Shown here in pieces: positions 19,773-45,906 of a stretch of 61,799 nt of DNA (its first letter is position 1; every line of letters starts with the position of its first letter). Both the position numbers and the translations under genes were made by a program. The notes under the pieces were generated by a model. The model was given only the letters and a program-made list of their open reading frames with translations. It was not told the origin of the DNA and made no database searches. The stretch is from the NCBI GenBank assembly GCA_028716005.1, contig JAQUQQ010000001.1, forward strand, positions 1 through 61,799. Reading direction: 5' to 3'. This stretch comes from Candidatus Moraniibacteriota bacterium (GTDB lineage: Bacteria > Patescibacteriota > Minisyncoccia > Moranbacterales > UBA11712).

Positions 19773-19793
19773 CCCGCGAGATCTCGCACTCCA

Positions 19794-24422: not shown

Positions 24423-24429
24423 TGATTTT

Positions 24430-24471: not shown

Positions 24472-24479
24472 ATTCCAAG

Positions 24480-27800: not shown

Positions 27801-27920
27801 CTTTGTTGCCTATTTAGTCTCTTATTAGCTTCTGAAAGTTTACCAGCAAAAACCGCTTTGGTCAACGTATCTGGAAAGTTCCTTGATTTTTTCGTTTCCC
27901 TCCGCTACCATTTCAACAGG

Positions 27921-27968
27921 TTATCAACATAATTATCAACACATACCCCGTTTCCCATATTATCCTTG
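27921..27968. promoter_or_regulatory. DnaA-box cluster upstream of dnaA
   Basis: TTATCAACA at 27921-27929 and 27933-27941, and TTATCCTTG at 27960-27968. These are 1-2 mismatches from TTATCCACA. Confidence 0.55.
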
Positions 27969-27999
27969 TGCTATAATTAGAGAACTCAATTTCCAAACA

Positions 28000-29394
28000 A
28001 TGACAAACAACGAAATTTGGCAAGCGGTTCTAGGAGAAGTCGAGCTGGCTATTTCACCCGCCAGCTTTACTACTTGGTTTCGGAATACTTCCATAATCGA
28101 GTTTGAAAACGACGCGGTGATCGTGAGCGTTCCCAACGGATTTGCCAAAGAATGGCTGGAAAACAAATACAATCAGTTCATATTGAAAGCAATCAAAAAC
28201 TTTCAGGACAACACGCGGAAAGTCCGCTGCATTGTTTCAACGAAGAACGCCCAAAGAGCGTCTCTCGCACCCAAAAAAGACGTCGATTCTGTCCTTTCGG
28301 GGGGAGGAGAAAGCCTGATCGACCTTCGCGATGCGGAAACCCCCGCCCAGCGGGCAGAAGGAGGGCACATCGGCCTCAACTATCGCTATACCTTTGAAAA
28401 TTTCATCGTCGGCTCAAACAACGAACTGGCCCATGCGGCCTGCCTCGCCGTCTCAAAAAATTCCGGCCGGACATACAATCCTCTTTTCATTTATGGGGGT
28501 GTCGGGCTTGGAAAAACCCACCTTCTTCAGTCAGTCGCCAACTCGATCCTCGCCCAAGATCCCAAAAAAAGGATTATCTATTCAACCGCTGAATTTTTCA
28601 CCAATCGCTATATTGATATGGTGAAAAACCAGCAGGCCCGGGAATTCAAACAATCATACCTCGACACTGACCTTCTTATTATAGACGACATCCAATTTAT
28701 CGCCGGAAAAGAGAAAACCCAGGAGGAGTTTTTCCATATTTTCAATACCCTTTACCAGCTCGAGAAGCAAATTATTCTATCGAGCGACCGGCCGCCAAAA
28801 GCCATCGCCACGCTCGAAGACCGCCTCCGCTCCCGCTTCGAAGGAGGAATGATCGCCGATGTATCGCGGCCGGACCTCGAGACCAGAATCGCCATTTTGC
28901 AGCACAAAGCCGCCCAAAAAGACTTTGAAATTGAAAATGACGCCTTGAATTACATCGCCTCCAATATCCAAAACAATATTCGGGAGCTAGAAGGCGCCTT
29001 GAGCCGCATCATCGTTACCTGCGAGCTTAAAAATGCCGAGCCCACGTTGAATTATGTGAAAAAAACCCTCTCTGACATCATTCACTCCGGCAGAAAAAAG
29101 GGGACTGGGTTCAAGCAGGTTCTTGAAGCCGTGGCTGATTTTTACGACATCAATCAGCAAGAACTCGTGAACCGGTCGAGGAGAAAGGACATCGTAAAGC
29201 CCCGGCAAGTTGCCATGTATCTCATGCGTGAAGAACTTCGCGCTTCTTTTCCGGGGATTGGCGAGCAATTGGGCGGGAGAGACCACTCAACAGCTATGCA
29301 CGCTTATGAAAAAATCAGTCGGGAAATCGAGCAGGACGAGGTTCTAGAGCAGGAACTCCAAAACATCAAGGGAAAGATGTATAGCAACAACTGA
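28000..29394 (+). CDS. dnaA: chromosomal replication initiator protein DnaA
   Basis: Start taken at [15 protein letters not shown] (ATG 28000). Walker [17 protein letters not shown], and C-terminal ..[13 protein letters not shown]... Confidence 0.95.
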
Positions 29395-30871: not shown

Positions 30872-31159
30872 ATGAAACAAATTGCCGATTTATTGGGAGA
30901 AAGAAAGGCTTTTAGCAATCACGTGCGGGAAGCCGACGAAAAATCCGTCGAAAGCATTTTTTTCAGCGCTCTCAAGAAAAATTTACCGAATATTGCGCGG
31001 GCGGATATTACGAATTTTGTTTTAAGGGATAAAAAAATATATCTGCGGACGACCCATCCGGCGATAGCCGGCGAGATCTGGAGAAAGAGAGAAAGACTGA
31101 AAAACGAAATCAACGATTTTTTTGGCGGCGAAGACATCAAAGAAATAAAAGTAAAATAA
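30872..31159 (+). CDS. DUF721/DciA-like protein
   Basis: 95 aa. ..FVLRDKKIYLRTTHPAIAGEIWRKRERLKNEIN.. matches the DUF721 pattern. Position after dnaN is conserved. Confidence 0.5.
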   Translation: MKQIADLLGERKAFSNHVREADEKSVESIFFSALKKNLPNIARADITNFVLRDKKIYLRTTHPAIAGEIWRKRERLKNEINDFFGGEDIKEIKVK

Positions 31160-31196: not shown

Positions 31197-33455
31197 TTAC
31201 TGGCAGTCTCCAATATCACCTTTGATATCAAGTTTTTCCTTCTCGGCCCATTTTTGGACACCCTTTTCCCAGGCATCAAATTGGGGATCTTTCTGGGGCT
31301 GTTTCGGGGTGTCACCACGGGGGTTGTCTTTGTCCACCCAATAAAGGATATCATGGGCGCTAAACAGTTTCTTTTTCTTTTCGTCTGTGCCGTCGGGGCA
31401 ACTATCGCCGGTCGGAACGCAATATTTATTTTTTTTGATTTTGCAGACCTTCACATCTTTTTCTTCTCCGTTTATCGTTCCGTCGAGAACGGGTTTCCCG
31501 GTTTTTTCGTCTTTGGCTTGAGGGAAGCTCTCAACGGCCATATTGGAAAACGCCTTGTCCATAAACTCCCGCCAGATTGGCGCGGCGACGAACACGCCGT
31601 CAGCTCCCTGCGCCATCGGAGCGTTGTTGTTGTTTCCCGCCCAGACGCCAGCCACGAGGTTCGGCGCGTATCCCACCGTCCAAGCGTCCCGCCATTCATT
31701 GGTGGTCCCGGTTTTCACGGCTACCGGCCGGCTGTCGAAGCGGAGAGGGCTGTTCGACCCGAAAACTGAAGAGCGCAGGCTGTTGTCGGAAAGAATGGAA
31801 TCAATCTTGGCGCAAACATCCTGGTCGAGCACTTTTTCGCCGGCCGAATTTTTATACTCATCCAAAACGTTTCCTCGAGAATCAGTGATTTTGAGAATAG
31901 CTGTTTTGTCATGCCGAAACCCTCCCGTGGCGAAAGTTCCGAACGCGTTTACGTGGTCAACGAGTTTCACCTCGCCGCCGCCGAGAACCAGAGCCAGGCC
32001 GTAGCGGCTGGGATTTTGGAGGGTCGTGATTCCCATGGATTGAGCCGTATTGATCGAATTTTGCACGCCGGCAAGATAGAGGGTTTTCACGGCCGGAATA
32101 TTCAAAGATCTCGCGAGCGCCTCTTTCATTTTCACCGGTCCGCTGAATTTGTTGGAATAGTTTTGGGGTGTGTAGGGCTGGTCCTTTGTTCCGAAATTTG
32201 TCTCAACGTCAAAGAGGACTGTGTTTGGAGTATAACCTTTTTTGAAAGCCGTCGCGTAGACATACGGCTTGAAACTTGATCCTGGCTGACGGTCGCGAAT
32301 AGCCACATTCACGTTCCCGTCGATGGTTTTGTCAAAATAATCGCGAGAACCAACCATGGCGAGAATTTGTCCGGTCTTTGGATCGATGGCAACAAGGGCC
32401 GCGTTTGAGGCTCTGTATTTAGCGTTTGCCGCGGCTCCTTTTTTCACGGCCTCATCCGCGATTTGCTGCTTGTCCCAGTCAAGAGTGGTATAGACTTTCA
32501 TGCCTCCTTCTTCAACTTGCTGCTCGCCGTATTTGTTCACCAGAAGATCCTTCACATACATCACGAAATGGGGCGCTTGGATATTTTCTTGAAAAGGCCT
32601 GACTTCCGAGATTATATCAACTCCTTTGGCCGCGTCGGCTTCTTCTTTGGTGATATAGCCGAGCTTTGTCATTTGATCCAAAACATATTCCTGCCGGCCC
32701 TTGAGATCATCCGTGTTTGTGCCGTAGGGGGAATAATAGGTCGGGGCCTTGGGAAGAGAAGCGAGAAGCGCAGCTTCGGCGAGAGTCAAATTTTTGGCGT
32801 CTTTTCCAAAAAAAGTTTGGGCGGCAGCCTGGACCCCGTAGGCGTTGGAGCCGTAGGGGATCTCGTTGAGATACATTTCAAGAATTTCGTCTTTCGTGAA
32901 TCTTTGTTCAAGTTCGACGGCGAGGATCACCTCTTTTACTTTTCTGGTGAGGGTCTGCTCCGGAGTCAGCACCGTGTTTTTGATGAGCTGCTGGGTGATG
33001 GTCGAGCCTCCCTGGCTGACGTGGCGGCCAATAAGATCATAAACCGCGGCCCGGGCAATGGATTTGAAATAAATTCCGTGGTGCTGGTAGAAACTCTGGT
33101 CCTCGGCGGAAAGAGTGGCGGCCTTGATGACTTCGCCCATGTCTTTTATGGGAATCGTGGTGCGTTTTTCCTCGCCATGGATTTCATAGAGCAGGTGATC
33201 GCCCGTGCGGTCGTATATTTTGGTCGATTCAACCACCTGCCGCTTGTTGAGTTTTCCGGGGCTGGGGAGGTCTTTCGCGTAATAGGCAAAAACGCCGATA
33301 GCCAAAAGCAGCCCGGCGACAAAGCACCAAACAAAAAATTTGAAAATCCGCCGGAGCCATTTTCTCTTCTTTTTTGGCTTTTTCAAGGCGTTTTTCGTAT
33401 TATCGACGAGATCGTTTTTCATGCTTGCTTGCCCCGTGCCACAAAAAATAGACAT
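31197..33455 (-). CDS. class A penicillin-binding protein (PBP1A: transglycosylase + transpeptidase)
   Basis: GT51 motifs EDQSFYQHHG, GGSTITQQL and RKVKE. Transpeptidase motifs SSFKP, SLN and KTGTT. The start may instead be the internal MKNDL. Confidence 0.9.
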   Translation of the reverse strand: MSIFCGTGQASMKNDLVDNTKNALKKPKKKRKWLRRIFKFFVWCFVAGLLLAIGVFAYYAKDLPSPGKLNKRQVVESTKIYDRTGDHLLYEIHGEEKRTTIPIKDMGEVIKAATLSAEDQSFYQHHGIYFKSIARAAVYDLIGRHVSQGGSTITQQLIKNTVLTPEQTLTRKVKEVILAVELEQRFTKDEILEMYLNEIPYGSNAYGVQAAAQTFFGKDAKNLTLAEAALLASLPKAPTYYSPYGTNTDDLKGRQEYVLDQMTKLGYITKEEADAAKGVDIISEVRPFQENIQAPHFVMYVKDLLVNKYGEQQVEEGGMKVYTTLDWDKQQIADEAVKKGAAANAKYRASNAALVAIDPKTGQILAMVGSRDYFDKTIDGNVNVAIRDRQPGSSFKPYVYATAFKKGYTPNTVLFDVETNFGTKDQPYTPQNYSNKFSGPVKMKEALARSLNIPAVKTLYLAGVQNSINTAQSMGITTLQNPSRYGLALVLGGGEVKLVDHVNAFGTFATGGFRHDKTAILKITDSRGNVLDEYKNSAGEKVLDQDVCAKIDSILSDNSLRSSVFGSNSPLRFDSRPVAVKTGTTNEWRDAWTVGYAPNLVAGVWAGNNNNAPMAQGADGVFVAAPIWREFMDKAFSNMAVESFPQAKDEKTGKPVLDGTINGEEKDVKVCKIKKNKYCVPTGDSCPDGTDEKKKKLFSAHDILYWVDKDNPRGDTPKQPQKDPQFDAWEKGVQKWAEKEKLDIKGDIGDCQ

Positions 33456-33534: not shown

Positions 33535-34872
33535 CTATTTTTCCAAATTCTCTAAATCCCCATCATTTATACCAAGTTGTTCCAGCACCCACAGGTGCCG
33601 GGGATTCGTTGGGTCATATTTGCCTATCGAAAATTTTATTTCTGCGCCTGGCTTTTCTTTTAATAATCGCCACACACCTATATTCCCTTCCCTATAAACC
33701 ATATCCCTCGAAAGGCAAGCGCCTGGAGTTTTGCAGGTCGTTCCTCGAAAAATTCTAACGCAATCAGCCCAAGCATCATTTTTTGCGGTTTCGAGCGCGC
33801 TAGGCTTTTCTTTTTTGGATCTTATAAAATAATAGTCCTTTAAAATTTCAAATACCCGGCGAAAATCTCTCTTTTTTCCATCGACTCCTCGAGCCAAGGA
33901 AATGGCAAAATGGTAGTCTAATCCGCGAAAGCTCTTTGCTCCCTTTATTTTTTGCTCCCGATAGGTGGCAATCCCCTCCTCGCCTTTCAGTGACCTATCA
34001 AGCCCCAAAGCAAGCAGTTTGAGCTTTGAGCGTTCTCCTTTTTCTCTTTGCAAGACATGCGTTCTAAGCTCATGCTCCATCAGCGCCAGTAAGTCTGAGT
34101 GCTTTAGTTTTCTTATTGAAGGTATGTTTACGACTCTCTTCTGCTGACTGACACTAAGATTGGCAATTTTGCCTTCTCTTTCAACAACCACTCTCCATCC
34201 AGCTATCTGAAGTTTTTGCAAATACTCCTCGAAAGCAGACTTTATTTTTTCGGCCGAATAAACTTTTTCATCCCCGAATGATTTTATCTCAGGCAGATTA
34301 AATTCCTCAGGTCTTATCGAATTTTCATTATTCATCAAAACCTCAAACAATTCTGCATTGAGTCGTTTTGCCGCAGAAGAAATCTCCCGATCAGGATCAA
34401 ATATTTTCTGGTCGATGACTGCTTTAATTTGATAAATTGTGTGTTGATAAAATTCATTATCTGGTTTTCCATAAATAAAGGTTGAATATCTTGCGAATCT
34501 TCGGTCATCACCATTGCGTGCGGCTTTTAGCATACGCAATACAGCCAGCTGCTCGTTGACGCGAGTGCGGTAAGATTCTCTAACTGGCAGGTTCTTCTCC
34601 TGGGAAAGAATATCTCTTTTGAGAAGCAAGAGCCTTTGCTCCTTCTGATCAAAGCCGAAGTTTTCCAAGTCAGGTAAATCGAGGGACGGGTTTTCTATTT
34701 CTCCCGAGAGAAATTTATTTTTTTGCTCACTGCGGATTTCTTTCTTTCCGGATAAATATTCAAAATCCATAAAAGCCCCGACACTTTTGAATCTTTTATA
34801 CCAAAGGTCATCGAAAGCGCCTGGAACATTTTCCGGTTTATTCCGATGATCTGAAACTTCAAGCTTGTTCAT
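33535..34872 (-). CDS. DUF1704/MATCAP-like metallocarboxypeptidase family protein
   Basis: 445 aa. MEHELRTHVLQREKG (HExxH), followed by ..GLDRSLKGEEGIATYREQ.. (QEGLA-like motif). Confidence 0.65.
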   Translation of the reverse strand: MNKLEVSDHRNKPENVPGAFDDLWYKRFKSVGAFMDFEYLSGKKEIRSEQKNKFLSGEIENPSLDLPDLENFGFDQKEQRLLLLKRDILSQEKNLPVRESYRTRVNEQLAVLRMLKAARNGDDRRFARYSTFIYGKPDNEFYQHTIYQIKAVIDQKIFDPDREISSAAKRLNAELFEVLMNNENSIRPEEFNLPEIKSFGDEKVYSAEKIKSAFEEYLQKLQIAGWRVVVEREGKIANLSVSQQKRVVNIPSIRKLKHSDLLALMEHELRTHVLQREKGERSKLKLLALGLDRSLKGEEGIATYREQKIKGAKSFRGLDYHFAISLARGVDGKKRDFRRVFEILKDYYFIRSKKEKPSALETAKNDAWADCVRIFRGTTCKTPGACLSRDMVYREGNIGVWRLLKEKPGAEIKFSIGKYDPTNPRHLWVLEQLGINDGDLENLEK

Positions 34873-35494
34873 AATTTATTGGTGTAAAATTTTCTAATAT
34901 TTTTTCGAAATGCTGACTTTCTAATGCCTTCAGTTCTTTTTCTCTTTGTTTGTTATAGCTAGTGGTTGCTTTTGAATCGTAATATCCCGGGTGACAAAGC
35001 AATTCGATTGTTTCACCTCGGGCACTTTTCAGATTTTTGAACAGTTTTTCTTTTCGATTTGGATGCCAGCTGATGAATTGATCAGGGGTTTTTATCCCCG
35101 CCGCCTGCATCATTTTTTGATCAATGGAAGAAGCGGAGCGAACAGGCAGTTTGTATTTTTTCGCTATTTTCAAGACTTTTGAAAAGTTTCCAGGAAGCAA
35201 GTGATAATATTTGTGTCCGTCGAGGTGAGAAGGGAATCGGCCAAATAATTTTCTAAATATTTTTATCTGATTTTCTATTTCCTTTGCTGGTGTCTCAAGA
35301 GAAAGCTCCAAATGAAGGCCGATGGAAATATTTTTGTGCTTTAACAGATCTTTCGGATTGATAAATTTTCTTTTTATCATCACTGTCGTACTTGTGACAA
35401 TGCCTCTTTCGATCAATTCCAAAATTCCTCTGTTGAATTGTTTTGACAAGCCGTAATCGTCCGCGTTAATTATTATTTTTCGAAGCAATGTCAT
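34859..35494 (-). CDS. YdjC/ChbG-family carbohydrate deacetylase
   Basis: 211 aa. N-terminal IINADDYGLSKQFNRGILELIERGIVTSTTVM and HLDGHKY. Confidence 0.75.
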   Translation of the reverse strand: MTLLRKIIINADDYGLSKQFNRGILELIERGIVTSTTVMIKRKFINPKDLLKHKNISIGLHLELSLETPAKEIENQIKIFRKLFGRFPSHLDGHKYYHLLPGNFSKVLKIAKKYKLPVRSASSIDQKMMQAAGIKTPDQFISWHPNRKEKLFKNLKSARGETIELLCHPGYYDSKATTSYNKQREKELKALESQHFEKILENFTPINYEQA

Positions 35495-36389
35495 TTTTTT
35501 TCTCTATAAGATTGATTATATTTTTGGCAACATTTATTTCGGGAAAGGCCTTTTCAAAGCCGCTAAACTGGGCAAAGGGGTTGATTTCTATAATATATAA
35601 TTTGTTTTTATGGCGGAGTATATCCACTCCGACATAATCCAACTTCATTTTTTGAGCTACACGCAGAGCAAGATCGACCATCTCCTTATTTTTTTCCGCT
35701 CTCGAGACTGTTCCTCCCAAGGAAAAGTTTGTTCTCCATTCGCCTTTTTTAGGGCTTCTTTTCATGACGCCGGCAACCTTATTTCCTATCACTAAAACCC
35801 GATAATCTTCGCTAATTTCCAAATATTTCTGGAATAGAAAAAACTCTCCGTCGTGATGCCTGTCTCTCAAGAAAGAATAGAGTTCCTTTTTTTTGTTTAT
35901 CTTATATACCTGGGCGCCGAGGCTGCCGTCGGCTATCTTGGCAACTGTTGGGTATTCAACTTTCAACTTTCCGATATTTTTTTTGTTGAAAAAATAGCAG
36001 GAGGGTATTCCGGGGAGATCGTTTTCAGCTAAAAAAAACTGCTGGGAAAGCTTATCAAGCTTTTGATAGCCGGACAAAAAATTTTTATTCAATAAAAAAA
36101 AGCCGTGCTTGTTCGAAAACTCAACGAGAAGATCCAAAAGCGTGTTTCGCCGGAGAGTCACTTTTTTCTCTTTTGGTCTGATTATGCATTTGCAATTTCG
36201 GGGAATGATGGCGTCAAACTGGGCAAAAGATTTGCCGCCATCTCCAAAATAAATATCTTTTTTGTTAATTTTCAGAACAATATCATCCCACGTAGTTAAA
36301 TACATGGAGTGTCCAGCTTTTCCCCCCTCGTCGTATATTCGCTTTGGAGCGTAATCTTTTTTTCCTAAAGCAATAATGCAGATTTTCAT
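35466..36389 (-). CDS. RimK-family ATP-grasp ligase (alpha-L-glutamate-ligase-like)
   Basis: 307 aa. ..YRVLVIGNKVAGVMKRSPKKGEWRTNFSLGGTV.., ..DYVGVDIL.. and ..YIIEINPFAQF... Confidence 0.75.
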   Translation of the reverse strand: MKICIIALGKKDYAPKRIYDEGGKAGHSMYLTTWDDIVLKINKKDIYFGDGGKSFAQFDAIIPRNCKCIIRPKEKKVTLRRNTLLDLLVEFSNKHGFFLLNKNFLSGYQKLDKLSQQFFLAENDLPGIPSCYFFNKKNIGKLKVEYPTVAKIADGSLGAQVYKINKKKELYSFLRDRHHDGEFFLFQKYLEISEDYRVLVIGNKVAGVMKRSPKKGEWRTNFSLGGTVSRAEKNKEMVDLALRVAQKMKLDYVGVDILRHKNKLYIIEINPFAQFSGFEKAFPEINVAKNIINLIEKKNDIASKNNN

Positions 36390-36407
36390 TTGGAATGTTT
36401 GATTTAT

Positions 36408-37367
36408 TTAATCAAATAGAGCCTTTATCATTTCCTCTCCGATATCCCGCACTTTTCCTTTTGTCGGCTTGAGGTGGAAAACAAATTCGGGAGCCCCGTT
36501 GATTTCCAATAAATACCCGGGAGACGCGGGTGATGTTATCGGCCGGGAAATATCCGAGGCAATGAGATCGACGCTTACGACATTTAAATCCAAATATTTA
36601 GAAAGTTTTATCAGAAGATTTTTGTTCTCTCTGGAAATTTCGTCTGTCCGGTCAATCCATTCTCCGCCATCTGCTCCGCTAAAGCTGATAATAAATTTCT
36701 TGTTCTTTTTTGGGACACTATTAAGCTTCAAGCCTTGGAATAGCAATATATCCTTTGTCTTATTTGTTATTACAGAAGTATTGCCGGTATCTTTCTCGTA
36801 TTTTTTGATCAAGTTCTTGGCTGTATTTTTTCCATCACCAATCAAGCAGATACTTTCCGTTTCCAAAATACCTGCTACTTTATTACTCACCAATGTTATG
36901 CGGTAATATTTTCCAAAAACCTGTTTCTCGACAAGAATATTCTTATCATACTTCAGGGCATGTTTGAAAAATTTTTTTACCGCTTCCGGCGACCTGATAT
37001 CCAAAAAGACACCCTTGCCCCCCTCGTGGCTTCTTGGCTTGACGACAACGGGATATCCTATCCTTGCCGCCGCTCCGGCTGCCTCTTCAGCGGTTGTAAC
37101 CGAAATGCCTTTTGGGAAAGGTATGCCGACCTCTTTGAGTATCTCTTTGGTCAAAAATTTATCCTTGACAAGCCACAGAGAGACTGGGTTTGATACAGAA
37201 AGACGAGGCCCACGAAACCAAACGGTTTTAGTACCCTTTTTCAGAATAAAAATTCGCTCATTTTTGAGCAGCTTATAAACTCTTACCTTTCGCTTAAAAG
37301 CGGCGTTCAAAATTGACTGGCTTCCCGGATGATATTGCTTGATTTCTCTTTGTTTTAATTCTCTCAT
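36408..37367 (-). CDS. ATP-grasp ligase (resembles the cyanophycin-synthetase N-terminal/RimK type)
   Basis: 319 aa. ..KDKFLTKEILKEVGIPFPKG.., GYPVVVKPRSHEGGKGV, ..YLLEINGAPEF... Confidence 0.6.
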   Translation of the reverse strand: MRELKQREIKQYHPGSQSILNAAFKRKVRVYKLLKNERIFILKKGTKTVWFRGPRLSVSNPVSLWLVKDKFLTKEILKEVGIPFPKGISVTTAEEAAGAAARIGYPVVVKPRSHEGGKGVFLDIRSPEAVKKFFKHALKYDKNILVEKQVFGKYYRITLVSNKVAGILETESICLIGDGKNTAKNLIKKYEKDTGNTSVITNKTKDILLFQGLKLNSVPKKNKKFIISFSGADGGEWIDRTDEISRENKNLLIKLSKYLDLNVVSVDLIASDISRPITSPASPGYLLEINGAPEFVFHLKPTKGKVRDIGEEMIKALFD

Positions 37368-37371
37368 ATGT

Positions 37372-38778
37372 CTATTTCACTTCAATTAAAAATTTCTTGA
37401 GATCTCGTTTTCCAATTATCAAGGGGTATTTTAAGTTTTTTCGGTCTACAATATTTATTTTTGAAATCACTTTTTCGTTATCCATTTCAAATTCGAGCCT
37501 TACTACCGGACGGATGGACGAACCACTAGCCGCAAAAACAACAGCAACGTCCTCGATATCTGGCATTTTCTCTTTATATTTTTCTAGAATATCTTTTTTT
37601 ATCGAACTCTCATTTTCGGGAACTAATTGATATTGGGAGAAGTCAATTGAGAAAAATTTAGCAATTATTTCTTCATAGCCTAGCTGCTTTGCAACCTCAA
37701 TGTCAATTGATGTTGAATAAGCCCCTGTGTCGATTTTTGCTTCAACCTCGATTTCTTTTTCATTTTTTCCGATCAGTTTTATCTTTTCCACCGTGCCGAT
37801 TATTTTCTTTCCCGAAATTCCCTCAATTTCATCCTCAATTTCTCCGCCGAAAAGATTCATTCCGACTGACACGCCCTTTTCGGCGGTCTTGATTTTGAGA
37901 TCCTCGACACGGCGCAGACGCCCGAGGAGCCCGTCAGTGTTCGCGATTTGGATGGAAAGCCCCGGGCGGGCATTGAGCTCCAAAAAGACCGGACCGCGGT
38001 CGCGGTCGATGGAAACGTCGGCTCCCAAAAAACCCAGGCCGGAAATTTCCTGGGCCCGAACGGCCATTCGGAGCATGTCCTTCCAATAGGGGATTTTGAT
38101 ACCGGAAAGCAGAAGGCGGGTTCCGGGAATATAGTCAATCATCTTTCCTTTCCCGAGGACAGAAGTGGTGGTCACCCCCGTGGCCATATCAATTCCCACG
38201 CCGATCGCTCCCTGCTGGAGGTTGGCTTTCCCGTCCGATTCGCGCGTCGGGAGGCGCAGCATGGCCATCACGGGCACTTTGTTGTATACGATTATCCGGA
38301 TATCCGGGATGCCTTTATAAGCATAGGGCTTGAAAAGCTTCAAAAGTTTGAGCCGCTCCTCAAAAAAAGCGATGTCCGGAACGCCGGCCAGAGAAAAACT
38401 TCCGTCAAGAATGTTTCTTATGTGTGTTTTTATGTCCTCTATCAGAACGAGAGATCCATCCGCTTTGATCCAGGTGTTCTCCATGTTTTTTTTCTTTCCG
38501 TAAACAACCAAAATACCTTCTCCGCCGAATCCGCGGTTTGGCTTCAGAACAAAACTTTCCGGAAGAAGACTCCAATCGAAATTTTCGAGTTCCTCGAAAT
38601 TTTTTATTTTCGCGATAAGTTTCGGGACGGGGAGCTCGGCTTTCGCGAGAAATTTTTTGCTCAAGAGTTTGTCGTCGGCCAGTTTTTTGGCGCGACGAAG
38701 ATTGTTCGGGCGGATAAACCGAAGATTGCGGGCATTCATGCCCAAAATATTTCGTCGAGCTTTCGAAAAAGAAGTCAT
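37372..38778 (-). CDS. alpha-L-glutamate-ligase-like ATP-grasp fused to a C-terminal retropepsin-like (RimK-associated putative protease) domain
   Basis: 468 aa. N-terminal ..ILGMNARNLRFIRPNN..A..LADDKLLSKKFLAKAELPVP.., ..LKPNRGFGGEGILVV.. and FLELNARPGLSIQ. C-terminal ..IEVEAKIDTGAYSTSID.. is a DTG-type motif. Confidence 0.6.
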   Translation of the reverse strand: MTSFSKARRNILGMNARNLRFIRPNNLRRAKKLADDKLLSKKFLAKAELPVPKLIAKIKNFEELENFDWSLLPESFVLKPNRGFGGEGILVVYGKKKNMENTWIKADGSLVLIEDIKTHIRNILDGSFSLAGVPDIAFFEERLKLLKLFKPYAYKGIPDIRIIVYNKVPVMAMLRLPTRESDGKANLQQGAIGVGIDMATGVTTTSVLGKGKMIDYIPGTRLLLSGIKIPYWKDMLRMAVRAQEISGLGFLGADVSIDRDRGPVFLELNARPGLSIQIANTDGLLGRLRRVEDLKIKTAEKGVSVGMNLFGGEIEDEIEGISGKKIIGTVEKIKLIGKNEKEIEVEAKIDTGAYSTSIDIEVAKQLGYEEIIAKFFSIDFSQYQLVPENESSIKKDILEKYKEKMPDIEDVAVVFAASGSSIRPVVRLEFEMDNEKVISKINIVDRKNLKYPLIIGKRDLKKFLIEVK

Positions 38779-39428
38779 CTTGGTTTTATAATTTGGCGAA
38801 ATCTGAAATATTCAGAAAGGCGAAGTCCAGTCCATTTTCCCAAAAAGATATTTATCGGAATCGTGAGAAGGCTAATCCACGGATAGTTCAAAATCATCTT
38901 GATAAGCAGCGGCCAGCTGGCGATATAATATCCGATGATGGAAATGAAGAGGGTTTCCAGCGAAAGAATAACAGCGGCGCGGTTTCCCTTTTCAATTTGG
39001 ACGGCTATGAATTTTTCGACCAAAGTTATCATAATGAGAATCGGAAAAATGGAAACGCCCGCGAGGCCGGTCCGGTTCCAGGTTCCCCCGACAAAAAGGA
39101 GAAGCAGGATTGAAAATCCAACGACGGTGATCATTATGGCTACGCGGGGAAGATAAAGAAGCCTTGCTTTTTTGAGAAGATAGCGGGTGATTGTTCCCAC
39201 GACTATGACGGTCACAAAAATCGTGATGCCGTATTTGAGTTGGCTGGTGGCGAGCAGAGCGAAGGTGATGATGGCTGGCGTATAGATGCCAAAAGCTTTG
39301 ATCCCGATGACTTGACGAAAAAAAGCGATCATGGTCACGATAATCGGGAGGATCAAAACCAAGACCAGGGTGTCGAGCGGCACCCCGTTGGCAGCCGCAA
39401 GGGTGATGAACGGGTTTACGTTATCCAT
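38775..39428 (-). CDS. 7-TM membrane protein of the type associated with inactive-transglutaminase/ATP-grasp systems
   Basis: 217 aa, about 6-7 TM segments. ..FRQVIGIKAFGIYTPAIITFALL... Overlaps the downstream ATP-grasp gene by 4 nt. Confidence 0.45.
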   Translation of the reverse strand: MDNVNPFITLAAANGVPLDTLVLVLILPIIVTMIAFFRQVIGIKAFGIYTPAIITFALLATSQLKYGITIFVTVIVVGTITRYLLKKARLLYLPRVAIMITVVGFSILLLLFVGGTWNRTGLAGVSIFPILIMITLVEKFIAVQIEKGNRAAVILSLETLFISIIGYYIASWPLLIKMILNYPWISLLTIPINIFLGKWTGLRLSEYFRFRQIIKPR

Positions 39429-39466
39429 AGGGTTTTTCGCTTAAATTTAGGCAAAACGCTGATTAA

Positions 39467-39495
39467 AAAATACCGCTTTTTGGCGGTGTTGTCAA
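39467..39495 (-). promoter_or_regulatory. candidate sigma70 promoter for the 7TM/ATP-grasp operon
   Basis: The minus strand reads TTGACA (39495-39490), a 17-nt spacer, then TATTTT (39472-39467), about 40 nt upstream of the ATG at 39428. The spacer contains a small accgc/gcggt hairpin. Confidence 0.4.
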
Positions 39496-39501: not shown

Positions 39502-39606
39502 ACTCGCGAATTTGAGCAAATGCGAAGCGAATACGAGCGAATAATATTGTGTCTTGTTATTGAGTCCGCTCTGATTCGCGATTAATTCGCTCTCTCATTC
39601 GCGAGT
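39502..39606. repeat. ACTCGCGAAT-family palindromic element, copy D (105 bp)
   Basis: actcgcgaatttgagcaaatgcgaagcgaatacgagcgaat..loop..ctgattcgcgattaattcgctctctcattcgcgagt. The right arm overlaps the last ~16 codons of ruvC. Confidence 0.85.
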
Positions 39607-40069
39607 TGAGGTGGCATATCGCAATTGCTACCGCGTCTGCCGCGTCATCCGGTTTCGGAACGCATCGAAGCTTCAAAATATTTTTCACCATTTCCTGGAT
39701 CTGTTTTTTTTCGGCGCGGCCGTATCCGGTGAGGGCTTGTTTTACTTGAAGCGGGGTGTAGTTTTGAATTGGAATTTTATTTTTTTTTATTTCATACAAA
39801 ATTACTCCGCGGGCCTGGGCGACGGTGATAGCGGTTTTGAGATTCTTGAAAAAGAAAAGATCTTCGATAGCCGCCTCTTCGGGTTTGTATTTTTTGATGA
39901 GCGAGGAAATGTCTTTTCCAATCTCAACCAGTCGTTCCGCGTCGGAATTCAATTTGCTTGTGTTGACGCACCCGCAAGCAATGAGCCGCGGATTTTTGTT
40001 TATTTCCTCAACGACGGCCCAGCCAGTCGTCGCCGTGCCGGGGTCAATACCTAAAACTCGCGAATGCAT
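39557..40069 (-). CDS. ruvC: crossover junction endodeoxyribonuclease RuvC
   Basis: 170 aa. MHSRVLGIDPGTATTGWAVVE.. and ..ADAVAIAICHL... The first 4-5 codons and the last ~16 codons lie inside repeat copies E and D. Confidence 0.9.
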   Translation of the reverse strand: MHSRVLGIDPGTATTGWAVVEEINKNPRLIACGCVNTSKLNSDAERLVEIGKDISSLIKKYKPEEAAIEDLFFFKNLKTAITVAQARGVILYEIKKNKIPIQNYTPLQVKQALTGYGRAEKKQIQEMVKNILKLRCVPKPDDAADAVAIAICHLNSRMRERINRESERTQ

Positions 40070-40163: not shown

Positions 40164-40880
40164 TTACAAGTTATCGTAAATTTCTTGAACGTCATCCAAT
40201 TCATCCAGTTTTTCCAGAAGTTTTTCATAATCGATTTTTGTTTCCGGGTCGATTTGAATCGGGGAGAGGGGCATGAACATAAGCCCGGCGTTGTCAATTT
40301 GGATGCCTTTTTTCTCAAGATTTTCCTTGATCTCTTTCAGATCACGCGGGTCGGTGAAAATTTGCAAGACCTCGCCTTGGAAAACGGTGTCCGCCGCTCC
40401 GGCGTCTATCGCCTGGAGTTCGATATCGTTGGCGTTTTCCTTGTTGGTTGTCGTGTATATCACGCCTATATTTTTGAATAGATATTGCAAGCTTCCGGCC
40501 GACGCCATTTTTCCGCCGGATTTTTCAATTATATTCCGAACTTCGCCGAGAGTCCGATTTTTGTTGTCGGTCGCGGTTTTCACGAGCATCGCGATGTTTC
40601 CCGGCGCCATAGCTTCGTAGACGACTTCCTCGATCGCGGCCGCGTCTTTCAGCTCGCCGGTTCCGCGCTTCACTGCCCGGTCGATATTTTCTTTTGGCAT
40701 GTTCACCGCGCGCGCCTGGTCAATGGCGAGACGCAAGCGAAAATTCATATCAGGGTTTCCTCCGCCCTCTTTCGCCGCGAGCGTCACCAGCCGCGCGACT
40801 TTGGTAAAAACGCCGGCGCGTTTGGCGTCTTGAGCCGCTTTTTTGTGTTTTATCCCCGCGAAATGTGAGTGTCCGGACAT
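40164..40880 (-). CDS. yebC: YebC/PmpR-family DNA-binding regulator
   Basis: 238 aa. MSGHSHFAGIKHKKAAQDAKRAGVFTK.. is the canonical YebC N-terminus. Confidence 0.9.
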   Translation of the reverse strand: MSGHSHFAGIKHKKAAQDAKRAGVFTKVARLVTLAAKEGGGNPDMNFRLRLAIDQARAVNMPKENIDRAVKRGTGELKDAAAIEEVVYEAMAPGNIAMLVKTATDNKNRTLGEVRNIIEKSGGKMASAGSLQYLFKNIGVIYTTTNKENANDIELQAIDAGAADTVFQGEVLQIFTDPRDLKEIKENLEKKGIQIDNAGLMFMPLSPIQIDPETKIDYEKLLEKLDELDDVQEIYDNL

Positions 40881-40947: not shown

Positions 40948-41739
40948 ATGGGAGCTATTATTTCCGGAAAAGTTATTAAAGGCAAAGGAAAGGGGAAAAT
41001 ATTGGGTTTTCCGACGGTTAATATTGTGTTAAAGAAAAAAATTGAAAGCGGAGTTTATAAGGGAAAAGTTAAAATAACAACTCGCGAATGCGGAGCGAAT
41101 GGAAAGCGAATCGGAGCGAATGAGTGGTTGGCGGGGATTTTTATTAGTCCGGATGGGAAATCGCTTGAAGCGCATGTGGTTGGGTTTTCGGGAAATTTAT
41201 ACGGGGAAGAGATAGAGATAGAGATTGGAGAAAAAATTAGGGAAGCCATGAAGTTCGAAGATGATGAGGAATTAATAGAACAGATAAAAAAAGATATTAA
41301 AAGAATAACTCGCGAATATGGAGCTAATGAAAAGCGGATTGGAGCGAACAAAGGTTTGGTTTATCCGGAGTTAAGTTATAAGTTAGTCGGTTTGGCTATG
41401 GAAGTGCACAATGAACTTGGAAATATTTATCAGGAAAAGCATTATCAGAAATTGTTTGAGGAAAGACTAAAAAAGATCAAAATGCCTTATGAGAAAGAAA
41501 GACAAATGGTGATAAAAACCAAAGATAATTCTGAAATAGGAGAATTTTTTGCAGATTTTGTTATAGATAATAAAATTTTGCTGGAGTTCAAACGGGTGAA
41601 TTTTGTACATTACAATGATGTTAAACAAGTGCTAAGATATCTAGACGCGACAGGTTTAAAGCTCGGCATAATAATAAATTTCAAGTTGAATAAACTGCAG
41701 TATAAACGAATCGTGAATCCAAGAGTTCGCTCATATTAG
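40948..41739 (+). CDS. riboflavin kinase domain fused in frame to a GxxExxY-type (PD-(D/E)XK-like) protein
   Basis: aa 1-~125: GKVIKGKGKGKILGFPTVNI..LEAHVVGFSGNLYGEEIEIEIGEKIREAMKF (riboflavin kinase). aa ~137-263: ..ELSYKLVGLAMEVHNELGNIYQEKHYQ..GEFFADFVIDNKILLEFKRV..VLRYLDATGLKLGIIINF (GxxExxY family). Two repeat arms are translated (TTRECGANGKRIGANEW, ITREYGANEKRIGANKG). An in-frame TTG at 41356 could be an independent start. Confidence 0.6.
   Translation: MGAIISGKVIKGKGKGKILGFPTVNIVLKKKIESGVYKGKVKITTRECGANGKRIGANEWLAGIFISPDGKSLEAHVVGFSGNLYGEEIEIEIGEKIREAMKFEDDEELIEQIKKDIKRITREYGANEKRIGANKGLVYPELSYKLVGLAMEVHNELGNIYQEKHYQKLFEERLKKIKMPYEKERQMVIKTKDNSEIGEFFADFVIDNKILLEFKRVNFVHYNDVKQVLRYLDATGLKLGIIINFKLNKLQYKRIVNPRVRSY
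41080..41121. repeat. solo left arm of the ACTCGCGAAT element (copy F), in frame inside the riboflavin kinase domain
   Basis: actcgcgaatgcggagcgaatggaaagcgaatcggagcgaat. Four CGAAT units spaced 11, 11 and 10 nt. No matching right arm nearby. Confidence 0.75.
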
Positions 41740-41764
41740 CTATAATTTGCTCAAATTCGCGAGT
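41308..41764. mobile_element. composite ACTCGCGAAT element (copy G) whose loop carries the GxxExxY coding segment
   Basis: Left arm 41308-41349 (actcgcgaatatggagctaatgaaaagcggattggagcgaac). Right arm 41725-41764 (gttcgctcatattagctataatttgctcaaattcgcgagt). The GxxExxY-like coding sequence lies between them. Mobility is inferred, not shown. Confidence 0.5.
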
Positions 41765-41769
41765 TGATT

Positions 41770-42372
41770 ATGTTCACAGGAATAATCAAAAAAGTTTCGA
41801 GAGTTGAAAACGTTTTCCAAAAAAATGGAAGTTTTTTTGTTGAGATAAAAATTCCGAAGGGATGGAAAATTAAACTCGGAGAAAGTATTTCGGTGAATGG
41901 GGTTTGCTCGACGGCTAAAAAAGTTAGTAAAAATAATTTTACGGTTGAATATATGCCCGAAACGGTCAAAAAAACGACCGTTGGAAATTTTGCGAAAGGC
42001 AGGGAAGTAAATCTCGAGCGGAGTTTGCGCCTCGGAGATCCCATTGACGGGCACATTGTGCAGGGGCACGTGGATACGACCGGAAAAATAATCGGAGTCG
42101 ATAAAGTAAAAAGTTCTAAAGTTTTGAAAGTAGAAGTTCCGAAAGAGTTTATGAAATTTCTGGCGCCGAAGGGGTCGGTTTCTATCGATGGGACAAGTCT
42201 CACCATAGTTGACGCGAAAAAAGATTGGTTTTCTGTATCGCTTGTGAGCTATACGCTCGAAAATACAAACCTTGGAAAAATAAAAGTGGGAGAAAAAGTG
42301 AACATTGAAGTTGACGCGCTGGCGAAATATATTTTTAACATATTAAAATCGAACGGTTATGTTAAACGCTAA
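41770..42372 (+). CDS. ribE: riboflavin synthase (alpha chain)
   Basis: Canonical MFTGII start (ATG 41770; the track start at 41764 is a TTG inside the repeat terminus). ..SISVNGVCSTA.., ..GHIVQGHVD.. and ..GSVSIDGTSLT... Confidence 0.9.
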   Translation: MFTGIIKKVSRVENVFQKNGSFFVEIKIPKGWKIKLGESISVNGVCSTAKKVSKNNFTVEYMPETVKKTTVGNFAKGREVNLERSLRLGDPIDGHIVQGHVDTTGKIIGVDKVKSSKVLKVEVPKEFMKFLAPKGSVSIDGTSLTIVDAKKDWFSVSLVSYTLENTNLGKIKVGEKVNIEVDALAKYIFNILKSNGYVKR

Positions 42373-42824: not shown

Positions 42825-44336
42825 ATGGCCAAATGGGAAAAAATCGCCAGTGACTATCACTGCAATTTCTGGAAAAACTATTGTTTTGTGAAAGGAGCGG
42901 CTCTTCAGCCGGAATTGATTGATATTCAGCAGGTGCATCTGGGCATTCGGGCTTGGCCCAAAACAATTGATTATTTGTATCTTCCGGAAACGTGGAAAAG
43001 GGGCCACAGAAAACTTGCCCAATTGGCTAGCCGGGATGTTTCGCTGGTTGAAAAAATCCTGAAGAAAACAAAATTAAACGGAGAGAGAATGAACGCTTTC
43101 ACGGAAAGTTTTGTTCGCGAAAATCTCACAAAATATTCCAACAAAAAAATCGTCGAGTCTCTCAAAAAACATGCCAATTTCAATTCGTTGGAATACGCCT
43201 GGGGAATTTTGATTCCCATTCTGGATTTTCAGGACGTTCACTATATTGAAGACAATCTCAAAGCGATTCTTGGGAGAAAATTGAGCAAGGCCCAGGCCGA
43301 GCGCGCGTTTTTCATCTTTACTCAGCCGCTTCATGACTCATTTGCTCTTGAGCAGGAAAAGTCAATTTTGAAAATATTTCAAAAAATACCGAAAAAACTT
43401 TTGGAAAAAGACGCAAAAGATATCTTGGAGAAACTCGAGGCAAGATACCCGGCCATATCGCGAGAATTAAGGAATCATGTGAAAAAGTATGCCTGGGTTT
43501 TTTATGTTTACTCCGGACCGGCGGCGACGGAAAAAGATTTTGTCGAAACGCTGAAATTTTACGCCAAAAAGAAAACCAATGCCGTAAAAAAATTGAGAAA
43601 AATGGAAAATGGCAGGAACAAACTGCTGGAGGAGCGCGAATATTTTTTTCAGAAAATGAAATTGGGAAAAAAAGAAAGAAAAACCGTGGAGCTTGCTGCC
43701 GAAGTTGTATATCTCAAGCCGCGTCGGAAAGACTATCAGACAAAATCATATTATCATCTCGAATTTTTGCAGCGGGAAATTGGAAGGAGGCTTCATTTGT
43801 CGCTCAGCCAAGTGAGAAGCTGCGCCTTCCAAGAGATAAAGTCTTCTCTTCGTGGGAGAAAAATTGACGTTCATGAGATAAACAAGAGGACGGAATATCA
43901 CATTGTTGTTCCTTCTGGGAAAGAAATCAAAATATATTCAGGGAAAAAGGCAAAAGAATTTGAGAAAAATATCAGAGAAGAGAGGGTGGAGATAGGTATA
44001 AAGAAAGAAATAGAGGGTCAGTCAGCTTTCCCCGGAACGGCGAGAGGATTGGTGAAAAGAGTGGATATACCTGGAGATATGAAAAAAATGAAAGAAGGCG
44101 ATATTCTGGTTTCCACCGCCACAACCCCGAGCATTATTCCGGCGATTAGGAAAGCAGCGGCCATTGTGACGGACGAAGGCGGGCTCACCTGCCATGCGGC
44201 GATTGTGAGCCGGGAATTTGAGATTCCGTGTGTAATCGGGACGAAATTCGCTACCAAAATCTTGAAAGACGGGGATTTAGCGGCAGTGGATGCTACCACT
44301 GGAAAAGTCAAAATTATAAAAAAAGCTAAAAAATAA
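42825..44336 (+). CDS. PEP-utilizer swivel (phosphohistidine) domain protein, paralog P1, long N-terminal domain
   Basis: 503 aa. C-terminus ..GDILVSTATTPSIIPAIRKAAAIVTDEGGLTCHAAIVSREFEIPCVIGTK... The N-terminal ~390 aa are helical and Lys-rich with KYAWVFYVYSGPA. No ATP-grasp motifs seen. Confidence 0.8.
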   Translation: MAKWEKIASDYHCNFWKNYCFVKGAALQPELIDIQQVHLGIRAWPKTIDYLYLPETWKRGHRKLAQLASRDVSLVEKILKKTKLNGERMNAFTESFVRENLTKYSNKKIVESLKKHANFNSLEYAWGILIPILDFQDVHYIEDNLKAILGRKLSKAQAERAFFIFTQPLHDSFALEQEKSILKIFQKIPKKLLEKDAKDILEKLEARYPAISRELRNHVKKYAWVFYVYSGPAATEKDFVETLKFYAKKKTNAVKKLRKMENGRNKLLEEREYFFQKMKLGKKERKTVELAAEVVYLKPRRKDYQTKSYYHLEFLQREIGRRLHLSLSQVRSCAFQEIKSSLRGRKIDVHEINKRTEYHIVVPSGKEIKIYSGKKAKEFEKNIREERVEIGIKKEIEGQSAFPGTARGLVKRVDIPGDMKKMKEGDILVSTATTPSIIPAIRKAAAIVTDEGGLTCHAAIVSREFEIPCVIGTKFATKILKDGDLAAVDATTGKVKIIKKAKK

Positions 44337-44345
44337 TTTTTCTAT

Positions 44346-45905: not shown

Positions 45906-45906
45906 A

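Follow-up and report, generated by a model that had tools for sequence, protein, structure and literature searches.

We analysed a 61,799-nt stretch of DNA (the window; contig JAQUQQ010000001.1, positions 1 to 61,799) from the metagenome-assembled genome of an uncultured, ultra-small Candidatus Moraniibacteriota bacterium, which carries on its minus strand a locus of six genes, designated g1 to g6. The first two genes encode a seven-transmembrane (7TM) protein and an ATP-grasp ligase fused to a retropepsin. Judged from domain content and alignments, this core is a fused and truncated variant of the RloABC system that occurs in Patescibacteria (candidate phyla radiation, CPR) and falls within the Rim/Rlo class of peptide-ligase/peptidase systems. 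The other four genes, encoding two further ATP-grasp ligases, a YdjC-type deacetylase and a MATCAP-type metallopeptidase, belong to a cassette whose ligases are swapped between close relatives. We propose, with a probability of roughly 0.45, that the locus would support the synthesis, without a template, of an acidic peptide on the inner side of the membrane, with the cassette ligases elaborating the peptide and the two peptidases trimming it. The combination of a fixed core with a swappable ligase cassette, and the recurrent pairing of bacterial ATP-grasp with MATCAP genes, appear not to have been described before; our literature search found no paper on bacterial DUF1704/MATCAP operons or on a 7TM/ligase-retropepsin system in Patescibacteria.

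A truncated RloB-like protein and a ligase-retropepsin fusion form the core

A sequence-only reading of the window had described six co-directional genes that overlap or are tightly spaced on the minus strand, and all of these open reading frames (ORFs) were found:

38775-39428, minus strand: g1, 7TM protein, 217 aa
37372-38778, minus strand: g2, ATP-grasp ligase fused to a retropepsin, 468 aa
36408-37367, minus strand: g3, cyanophycin-synthetase-like ATP-grasp ligase, 319 aa
35466-36389, minus strand: g4, RimK-family ATP-grasp ligase, 307 aa
34859-35494, minus strand: g5, YdjC-type deacetylase, 211 aa
33535-34872, minus strand: g6, MATCAP-type metallopeptidase, 445 aa

The genes are transcribed in the order g1 to g6 from one strand (span 33535-39428), with intergenic junctions of -4, +4, +18, -29 and -14 nt, and this overlap or abutment suggests translational coupling. 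The domain assignments of the sequence-only reading also held when profile searches were run: every Pfam match of g1 to g6, judged by the curated Pfam cut-offs, passed. The public annotation (NCBI) uses shorter starts for g6 and g2, giving 411 and 455 aa, respectively. The longer starts given above, which the sequence-only reading had also chosen, are favoured because homologues conserve residues upstream of the short starts and because the start codon of g2 overlaps the stop codon of g1 (ATGA).

The g1 protein contains seven hydrophobic segments and matched the 7TM_transglut family (PF14402, 103 bits) in Pfam. Against the NCBIfam RloB model, it matched positions 309-507 of 508, and it was 28% identical to aa 310-507 of a 508-aa Legionella 'inactive transglutaminase family protein' (E 5e-21). 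The Pfam search gave no PF14400 match, and the inactive-transglutaminase ectodomain was not found. By these comparisons, g1 is the transmembrane module of RloB only, lacking the inactive-transglutaminase ectodomain.

The g2 protein is divided into two domains and a linker:

37894-38757, minus strand: N-terminal domain, aa 8-295, RloC-type ('alpha-L-glutamate ligase-like') ATP-grasp
37810-37893, minus strand: linker, aa 296-323, conserved acidic stretch FGGEIEDEIEGISG, predicted to be disordered (predicted local distance difference test, pLDDT, 27-40)
37378-37809, minus strand: C-terminal domain, aa 324-467, RimB/RloA-type retropepsin with a DTGA active site (D350)

The ligase domain matched ATPgrasp_ST (PF14397) with 234.5 bits against a cut-off of 31.4, and the NCBIfam model TIGR02291 with 292.6 bits, just below the cut-off of 314.2; its score against the RimK family model was 43 bits. 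Residues 3-292 of g2 were 43% identical (E 4e-76) to a Legionella RloC-type ligase that sits in a canonical operon of retropepsin, inactive-transglutaminase/7TM and ligase genes; plasmid 5 of Legionella adelaidensis (L146) has an annotated operon of this rloABC type. The ATP-grasp residues K79, G83-G86, E140/E141, D254, E267, N269 and R271 were invariant in 29 homologues, and the nearest folds to the predicted model of this domain were ArgX, LysX, RimK and Ddl. In the linker, G302, G306, L309, F310, G311, G312, E313, E317, E319, S322 and G323 were invariant in the same 29 homologues, and the motif FGGEIEDEIEGISG may be a self-cleavage site or a tethered pseudo-substrate of a polyglutamate-type protease. 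The retropepsin domain (model pLDDT 75-92) matched PF05618 (Zn_protease, a retropepsin family) with 38.2 bits, the NCBIfam RloA1-3 models with E values of 1e-9 to 3e-10, and the PDB entries 9g58, 9g59 and 2pma with E values of 8.5e-5 to 1.5e-3; D350, G352, A353, R423, P424, R446, I454 and G456 were invariant in the 29 homologues. Since the retropepsin is the C-terminal domain of a ligase, a signal peptide is impossible there and the protease would be cytoplasmic. The five soluble proteins of the locus had no match to a transmembrane- or signal-type family and no N-terminal hydrophobic stretch by eye, a dedicated signal-peptide predictor not having been run.

In Pseudomonas aeruginosa, rloABC encodes the retropepsin RloA, the 7TM and inactive-transglutaminase protein RloB, and the ATP-grasp protein RloC (mBio 2025, PMC12239564). 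The sequence-only reading had held that such systems are experimentally uncharacterised; this view is out of date, as RloABC is backed by genetic, structural and in vitro protease data (PMC12239564). RloA and RimB cut runs of at least eight glutamates, the Pseudomonas RloA retropepsins are secreted, and deletion of rloB or rloC rescues the hypo-osmotic, shape, biofilm and beta-lactam defects of a triple RloA protease mutant (PMC12239564). This rescue implies that RloB and RloC make what RloA removes. The authors of that study suspect a link to peptidoglycan homeostasis and report RloB as 96% proteobacterial (PMC12239564).

The core in the window resembles RloABC in that the same three protein families occur in one operon and in that the g2 retropepsin keeps DTGA and the conserved Arg residues. 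Unlike RloA, which is separate and secreted, the CPR retropepsin forms the C-terminal part of the ligase protein and, having no signal peptide, is predicted to be cytoplasmic. In addition, g1 lacks the N-terminal part of RloB, ~300 aa in length, that carries the inactive transglutaminase ectodomain, and the CPR order is 7TM and then ligase-protease, whereas the Rlo order is protease, 7TM and ligase. The CPR core is followed by a variable ligase cassette that is not described for Rlo, and the CPR form occurs in Patescibacteria. A further related system is the RimK-RimB complex, which acts on ribosomal protein S6 (PMC12239564) by poly-alpha-glutamylation and trimming. As in RimK-RimB(-RimA), a cytoplasmic ATP-grasp ligase is physically tied to a cytoplasmic retropepsin of the kind that cuts polyglutamate, and g4 belongs to the RimK family and has a RimK N domain. 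Unlike in that system, the g2 ligase is RloC-type, g4 lies far under the S6-ligase cut-off, and a 7TM partner is present. The window does not contain rpsF, the gene of S6, whose Glu-Glu C-terminus is the substrate in the RimK/RimB system. The families ATPgrasp_ST, 7TM_transglut and Transglut_i_TM reportedly originate from Iyer, Abhiman, Burroughs and Aravind (2009, Mol Biosyst), who are said to have predicted a role in peptide or cell-surface modification for ATP-grasp/7TM-transglutaminase/peptidase systems; their description seemingly does not include the ligase-protease fusion of the CPR form, its constant place on the chromosome or the exchangeable cassette.

The core is constant and the following cassette is variable

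Related loci were collected in two surveys. The core survey used one genome per species and comprised 57 loci, most of them from Moranbacteria and Parcubacteria and a few from bins assigned to Doudna-, Dojka- and Saccharibacteria, and the second survey was anchored on the g6 family in metagenome contigs, so that both together covered 137 loci (57 + 80). The g2 fusion had more than 7,800 database matches, the best 120 of which were 67-100% identical and came almost all from CPR bacteria. A common backbone of YebC, RuvC, 7TM gene, fusion gene, variable stretch and PBP1A, a class A penicillin-binding protein (PBP), was detected by tblastn. In the window, its borders are as follows:

40164-40880, minus strand: YebC (Pfam), upstream border of the block
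39557-40069, minus strand: RuvC (Pfam), upstream border of the block
31197-33455, minus strand: PBP1A, class A PBP with transglycosylase and transpeptidase domains (Pfam), 79 nt downstream of g6

YebC and RuvC precede the 7TM gene in nearly all related loci, and PBP1A is the conserved downstream border of the cassette in ~50 of 57 related loci and also in the syntenic contig L144. The 7TM and fusion genes were constant, being present in 57/57 related loci and in every locus that reaches them. The variable stretch between the fusion gene and PBP1A measured 1-7.5 kb. Its ORFs were called and clustered and the cluster representatives were scanned, which gave a tally for 45 complete cassettes. One to three extra ATP-grasp genes were present in 44 of these, and a ~317-aa ATP-grasp gene came first after the fusion in 38. 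The main families were distributed as follows:

YheCD/GshB-like ATP-grasp: 30/45 complete cassettes
CphA-G-like ATP-grasp (g3 type): 17/45
MATCAP: 10/45
GT4 glycosyltransferase: 10/45
RimK-like, g4 type: 7/45
YdjC: 6/45

Other RimK-like groups were also contained in the cassettes, and rarer members were GNAT, DUF3541 (once fused to a RimK-like domain), Mur-ligase-like and ~490-aa ATP-grasp genes, together with one full-length cyanophycin synthetase (L008). The sequence-only reading had treated the six genes as a unit that should be conserved together, and this was contradicted by the neighbourhood survey: only g1 and g2 were constant, and the order found in the window (g3 type, g4 type, YdjC, MATCAP) was seen in 0 of 137 surveyed loci.

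Parts of the window cassette recur elsewhere. Genes similar to g3 and g4 come right after the fusion gene in L012, L144 and the P0242 contig (module A), and RimK-like, YdjC and MATCAP genes occur together in L007, L026, L037 and L065 (module B); from these arrangements, the window cassette looks like two recurring modules joined. Comparison with the nearest relatives by blastn delimited one exchanged segment:

35483-37372, minus strand: swapped module g3+g4, 1.9 kb

Against L007, L065, L008 and L026, homology stopped at the g2 stop codon (37373). It restarted at 35481, 35482 or 35575, at the g5 start, in three of these four closest relatives, and in L008 at 33776, inside g6. All four relatives have other ligases in place of g3+g4. 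Cassette genes had a GC content of 0.36-0.41 and a GC content at third codon positions (GC3) of 0.35-0.43, compared with 0.45-0.51 and 0.51-0.60 for backbone genes; the g3+g4 module had a GC content of 0.38-0.41. The nearest homologue of g3 among 5.8 billion proteins was 63% identical, whereas the values for g1 and g2 were 91-95%. The GC difference and the identity gap of g3 are signs of a cassette history separate from that of the backbone.

Enzymes encoded by the window cassette

The g3 protein matched generic ATP-grasp families in Pfam, and its best NCBIfam and PDB matches were to the G domain of cyanophycin synthetase. It covered approximately positions 153-472 of the NCBIfam cyanophycin synthetase models (862-871 positions) with 208-217 bits, and it matched PDB 7wac over aa 63-318 (E 2e-37) and 7lg5 with E 7e-34; in the alignment with CphA1, the lysine and E-x-N motifs of active ATP-grasp enzymes were kept. 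The N domain and the Mur-ligase-like M domain are missing, and the full-length cut-offs of 850-877 bits were not approached. On this evidence, g3 is a stand-alone ATP-grasp protein homologous to the G (backbone-extending) domain of cyanophycin synthetase, which in CphA1 extends the Asp backbone at its C-terminus. The likeness extends to related cassettes, where either a full-length CphA-like gene (L008) or Mur-ligase-like M-domain genes standing on their own are found. The differences from CphA1 are the absent N and M domains, with ~210 bits against the cut-offs just given, the absence of a cyanophycinase, and the position of g3 within a 7TM, ligase and protease system.

The g4 protein matched RimK (PF08443, 105.8 bits) and Rimk_N (PF18030, 28.4 bits) in Pfam, TIGR00768 with 139.6 bits (below the cut-off of 143.4), and the PDB RimK structures 7qys, 5zct and 4iwx (E ~1e-16), and the lysine and E-x-N motifs were kept in the RimK alignment. 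Its score against the S6--L-glutamate ligase equivalog PRK10446 was 79.1 bits, with a cut-off of 331. By these scores, g4 is a RimK-family ATP-grasp protein with the RimK pre-ATP-grasp N domain and not a RimK orthologue. The sequence-only reading would have been undermined by ligases that are ordinary RimK/S6-modification or Ddl enzymes; the curated equivalog cut-offs were not reached, and they rule out an ordinary RimK, Ddl or cyanophycin synthetase.

The g5 protein matched the carbohydrate deacetylase family YdjC (PF04794) with 147.7 bits against a cut-off of 29.7 and carries an N-terminal NADDYG motif at aa 10-15, which contains the DD metal/base residues; against the chitin disaccharide deacetylase (ChbG) equivalog, it scored 122.6 bits, below the cut-off of 227. 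Its gene overlaps g4 by 29 nt and g6 by 14 nt. In five of the seven cassettes that carry YdjC, the window counted, this gene directly follows a RimK-like gene.

The g6 protein matched MATCAP (PF08014) with 84.3 bits against a cut-off of 27. The sequence-only reading had assigned g6 to the DUF1704 family with an HExxH motif; the DUF1704/MATCAP family was correct, but the metal motif is HExxxH (HELRTH, aa 267-272, 34057-34074), followed by EEG at aa 298-300 (33973-33981), the motif of the third zinc ligand. H267, E268, H272, E298, E299 and G300 were invariant in 33 homologues. Human MATCAP (7z5g) was matched with E 0.013, and HExxxH, EEG and CVRxxRG were in register. The AlphaFold2 model of g6 had a pLDDT of 89.9, and a Foldseek search of the PDB returned M32 carboxypeptidases first (probability 0.96, TM 0.25-0.29) and also ACE2 and DUF885.

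The eukaryotic MATCAP/TMCP enzymes strip C-terminal residues off acidic tubulin tails and shorten polyglutamate chains (PMC10499314). Like these enzymes, g6 passes the Pfam MATCAP threshold and keeps HExxxH and EEG, and it is paired in the genome with ATP-grasp ligases, mirroring the tubulin cycle of TTL/TTLL ligases and carboxypeptidases; unlike them, it has only weak similarity to human MATCAP and no tubulin to act on. Compared with the bacterial 'QEGLA motif protein' family TIGR02421, it lies far under the cut-off (67.4 bits against 338.65) and lacks the N-formylglutamate amidohydrolase fusion of a Vibrio member.

MATCAP genes are repeatedly linked with the core

Approximately 10 of the 26 g6-family loci with at least 6 kb of upstream sequence had the canonical arrangement of 7TM gene, fusion gene and cassette. 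MATCAP was joined with the 7TM/fusion pair in at least four gene orders, and the following arrangements were found outside the canonical one:

L005: 7TM, fusion, three ATP-grasps, DUF3541, MATCAP
L141: three overlapping genes in the order MATCAP, 7TM, fusion
L088: RimK-like, MATCAP and another MATCAP-like gene, with fusion and 7TM following on the opposite strand
L108: a further MATCAP/core arrangement

Because the linkage turns up in different gene orders, MATCAP is an accessory that the core acquires repeatedly but does not require. On one contig of 288 kb, MATCAP occurs twice, in a cassette and on its own (L137, L127).

In L009, L016 and L020, a 620-aa HExxxH family without Pfam match occupies the MATCAP position, as the last or second-to-last large cassette gene. 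In hhalign, HExxxH, E-G-G and D-x-V-Y of this family lined up with the MATCAP profile, but the match was weak (E 3e-4, probability 38%); the family may be a very divergent MATCAP relative. The plasmid collection contained one distant QEGLA match, which had no ATP-grasp neighbour. This QEGLA-family gene (L145 4750-6741, Vibrio sp. HDW18 plasmid NZ_CP049914.1) lies beside nagB, and its product is the one fused to an N-formylglutamate amidohydrolase domain.

Proposed function and alternative explanations

Our proposal starts from the gene identities, intact motifs, gene coupling, core/cassette pattern, recombination breakpoints and recurrent MATCAP linkage described above, and from these we infer the amino-acid substrates, the acceptor, the nature of the product, its export and the role of the 7TM protein. 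The three ligases would act at the cytoplasmic face of the membrane and, needing no template, extend an acceptor at its carboxyl end with amino acids, likeliest Glu and Asp, giving a short acidic chain of mixed composition. The retropepsin would cut inside long acidic runs and the MATCAP-like enzyme would strip C-terminal residues, and together they would set the chain length and recycle the product. YdjC may expose a hexosamine amine, either as a site of amide linkage or in the editing of a sugar moiety, and the 7TM partner would anchor the machinery, with delivery of the product to the envelope probably running through or alongside it. In the CPR variant, ligase and protease share one polypeptide chain and must therefore act on the same cytoplasmic substrate. 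With cassettes exchanged among close relatives, strains should also differ in the composition of their product. A non-protein product is favoured because cassettes elsewhere include whole or split cyanophycin synthetases, Mur-ligase-like, GT4 and GNAT genes, and because a tail code on a protein would not be expected to withstand the exchange of its ligases among near relatives. Full-length cyanophycin synthetase, Mur-ligase-like, GT4, GNAT and YdjC enzymes belong to the chemistry of sugars and of free poly-amino acids. Taken together, the partner genes (cyanophycin- and RimK-type ligases, Mur-ligase-like, GT4, YdjC, GNAT and MATCAP-type) would restrict the likely chemistry to an acidic peptide made without a template and perhaps attached to an amino sugar.

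The write-and-erase scheme of the sequence-only reading survives in part: its logic of ligases and peptidases is retained, with three ligases and two peptidases that keep their catalytic motifs. Its suggestion of an amino-sugar polymer gains support from GT4, GNAT and YdjC in related cassettes and from the position of YdjC after a RimK-like gene.

Several points weigh against our proposal. To our knowledge, the only proven target of RimK/RimB is a protein, S6, and the retropepsin here is cytoplasmic like RimB. Substrate, acceptor and product are not readable from the sequence, no transporter-like feature was demonstrated for the 7TM protein, and the window cassette has no glycosyltransferase to accompany YdjC. 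The model of the whole g2 protein is of moderate confidence (pLDDT 67.8). The solved MATCAP structures (7z5g/7z5h) were not among the PDB matches of the g6 model in Foldseek, and because the matches returned had low TM values and did not include MATCAP, the family membership of g6 rests on sequence and not on fold. Finally, many MATCAP homologues are solitary, and they may therefore have a general role unrelated to the Rlo-like core.

In one alternative, which we consider unlikely, the locus carries out reversible C-terminal or side-chain tailing of a specific protein, as in an S6- or tubulin-like tail code: the ligases would append Glu or other residues to an acidic tail, the retropepsin and the MATCAP-like enzyme would erase them, and the 7TM protein would be target or scaffold. 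It is consistent with the assignment of g4 to the RimK family, with the fold similarity of the g2 ATP-grasp to ArgX, LysX and RimK, all of which act on protein C-termini, with the action of MATCAP/TMCP enzymes on protein tails, and with the fusion of a cytoplasmic retropepsin to a ligase, as in the S6-acting RimK-RimB complex (PMC12239564). However, a fixed target predicts a conserved set of enzymes, whereas the ligases are swapped between close relatives, and cyanophycin synthetase, Mur-ligase-like, GT4, GNAT and YdjC genes in related cassettes fit poorly with it. Moreover, g4 is far under the S6-ligase equivalog cut-off (79 vs 331 bits), and no candidate substrate gene or small ORF was found at the locus.

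Somewhat less probable still is a cytoplasmic osmotic or charge buffer, or a storage polymer of the poly-alpha-Glu or cyanophycin-like kind, with the 7TM protein as a tension or osmotic sensor. Glu and Asp would be polymerised and set free again, which would tune the count of osmotically active particles or store nitrogen, and the sensor would govern the ligase/protease balance. All enzymes of the locus appear cytoplasmic, g3 is cyanophycin-G-like, and in some cassettes cyanophycin synthetase is present whole or split. Rlo mutants show a defect specific to hypo-osmotic stress (PMC12239564). For Photobacterium damselae at low salinity, a 52-fold induction of RimK and a 27-fold induction of a QEGLA (MATCAP-family) gene are reported; a GshB-annotated gene bears the neighbouring locus tag (PMC10308900). 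Such a buffer is difficult to reconcile with the secreted proteases of Pseudomonas, which imply an exported product; the hypervariable ligase set and the presence of GT4, YdjC and GNAT in cassettes would be left unexplained, and nothing marks the 7TM protein as a sensor.

The adjacency of PBP1A raises the question of a wall-related role, in which the ligases would add amino acids to the stem peptide of peptidoglycan precursors, to another wall polymer or to a deacetylated hexosamine, the peptidases would trim them, and the system would be tied to the adjacent class A PBP. YdjC-type deacetylases generate glucosamine (GlcN) amines, some cassettes contain Mur-ligase-like genes, and the cassette is directly upstream of and co-directional with PBP1A in ~50/57 loci; in the window, g6 and PBP1A are not separated by a terminator. 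Rlo mutants also have cell-shape and beta-lactam phenotypes (PMC12239564). On the other side, the block also keeps the unrelated YebC, RuvC, DciA, dnaN and dnaA, and the PBP adjacency may therefore be inherited synteny near the origin. In L005, L054, L056, L058, L088 and L141, the 7TM-fusion pair lies away from any PBP, and in the window PBP1A has a promoter-like site of its own. Overall, we regard a wall-related role as improbable. Least probable is the absence of any single system, with the conserved 7TM and fusion genes simply standing beside a recombination hot spot at which ligase, sugar and peptidase genes accumulate without being related to one another: accessory genes are variably present, many MATCAP homologues are solitary and the cassette GC differs, but the cassettes are biased to ATP-grasp ligases (44/45) and to the same few partner families, the overlapping or abutting genes suggest translational coupling, and the MATCAP linkage recurs in several independent gene orders.

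The locus also bears on wider questions. In Pseudomonas, loss of the Rlo-type system alters osmotic tolerance, cell shape, biofilm formation and beta-lactam tolerance. The core is 60-95% identical across organisms with ~1-Mb genomes, which suggests that it is important to them. A ligase cassette exchanged precisely from one gene border to another would represent a novel form of variability among strains, and a strain-specific envelope peptide, if real, would parallel, in peptide form, the variation of O-antigens or capsules, with a bearing on how these bacteria attach to hosts or evade phages. Through the bacterial ATP-grasp/MATCAP pairing, both the origin and the chemistry of the enzymes that modify tubulin tails would become tractable. 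A bolder extension, which we put forward as speculation and think doubtful, is that core and recombining cassette make a strain-specific non-ribosomal acidic (glyco)peptide on the envelope of these episymbiotic ultra-small bacteria, and that operonic ATP-grasp/MATCAP pairs are prokaryotic forerunners of the tubulin ligase/carboxypeptidase cycle.

Promoter, borders and chromosomal position

The promoter proposed in the sequence-only reading was returned by our promoter scan:

39467-39495, minus strand: promoter candidate TTGACA-17-TATTTT, upstream of g1

The scan as a whole showed no enrichment over shuffled sequence. TTGACA, a 17-nt spacer and TAnnnT upstream of the 7TM gene were kept in ten close relatives, among them L007, L008, L009, L010, L011, L014, L017, L026 and L053. 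Because the hexamers and their spacing are kept while the spacer sequences diverge, the promoter upstream of g1 is supported as real. The 17-nt spacer contains a short hairpin followed by a T-run, which could alternatively serve as a ruvC terminator. In more distant relatives, the gap from RuvC to the 7TM gene is just 10-26 nt, and the core must therefore be co-transcribed with ruvC there. The RuvC/7TM intergenic regions of L010, L017, L026 and L053 have a hairpin and T-run (AAGCC...GGGGCTTTTTTT) in the 5' leader, downstream of the promoter; this terminator-like element is absent from the window.

At the other end, the tight spacing described in the sequence-only reading held but the limit of six genes may not. 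No terminator was found between g6 and the PBP1A gene in the window, and the transcription unit may thus exceed six genes. The scan also placed a promoter-like site of PBP1A itself at 33525-33497. Three further features adjoin the PBP1A end of the locus:

27883-29394: dnaA
29677-30828: dnaN
30872-31159: 95-aa ORF, probably DciA, judged from its position relative to L144

Since dnaA and dnaN adjoin the locus and the minimum of the cumulative GC skew falls at 36-38 kb of the window, the operon would lie at or very near the replication origin.

Other kinds of element were considered for the locus. A riboswitch or leader RNA was rejected, as no Rfam family reached threshold within 31-41 kb, and so was a precursor peptide, as the 128-nt gap upstream of g1 contains no minus-strand small ORF. 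An anti-phage defence system was likewise rejected, the six proteins having no PADLOC match. No phage-borne copies were found in the viral contig collection scanned with the g2 and g6 family alignments, and the window contains no tRNA genes that could mark integration.

Other features of the window

Beyond YebC in window coordinates, the plus strand carries an unusual fusion of a riboflavin kinase domain with a PD-(D/E)XK nuclease-superfamily domain (PF13366) at 40948-41739, followed by riboflavin synthase at 41764-42372. Eight tandem paralogues of 503, 519, 497, 490, 348, 338, 352 and 355 aa then occupy 42825-53789 (plus strand). Every member has a swivelling phosphohistidine domain of the PEP-utilizers family (PF00391) at its end, no Pfam match was obtained for the N-terminal parts, and the mutual identity is 30-60%. 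In L003 and L004, a solitary MATCAP homologue is followed immediately downstream by a comparable set of genes (672 aa with PPDK_N, then 434 and 502 aa).

At 3812-20960 (plus strand), the window encodes large proteins that mostly have no Pfam match, one with TSP3 repeats and one 1212-aa ORF, together with a TraG/VirB4-like P-loop ATPase (11603-13429) and an SLT lytic transglycosylase (17883-19157), both on the plus strand; this block may be a type IV secretion, conjugation or pilus-like apparatus. A surface polysaccharide set follows at 21008-25931 (minus strand), with two Wzy_C proteins (O-antigen ligase/polymerase-like), a GT2 glycosyltransferase and a Wzx-type flippase. A probable surface protein of 646 aa, in which three lamin-tail domains are combined with a PKD domain, is encoded at 57025-58965 (minus strand), and a homologue of its gene is found at the matching end of the syntenic contig L144.

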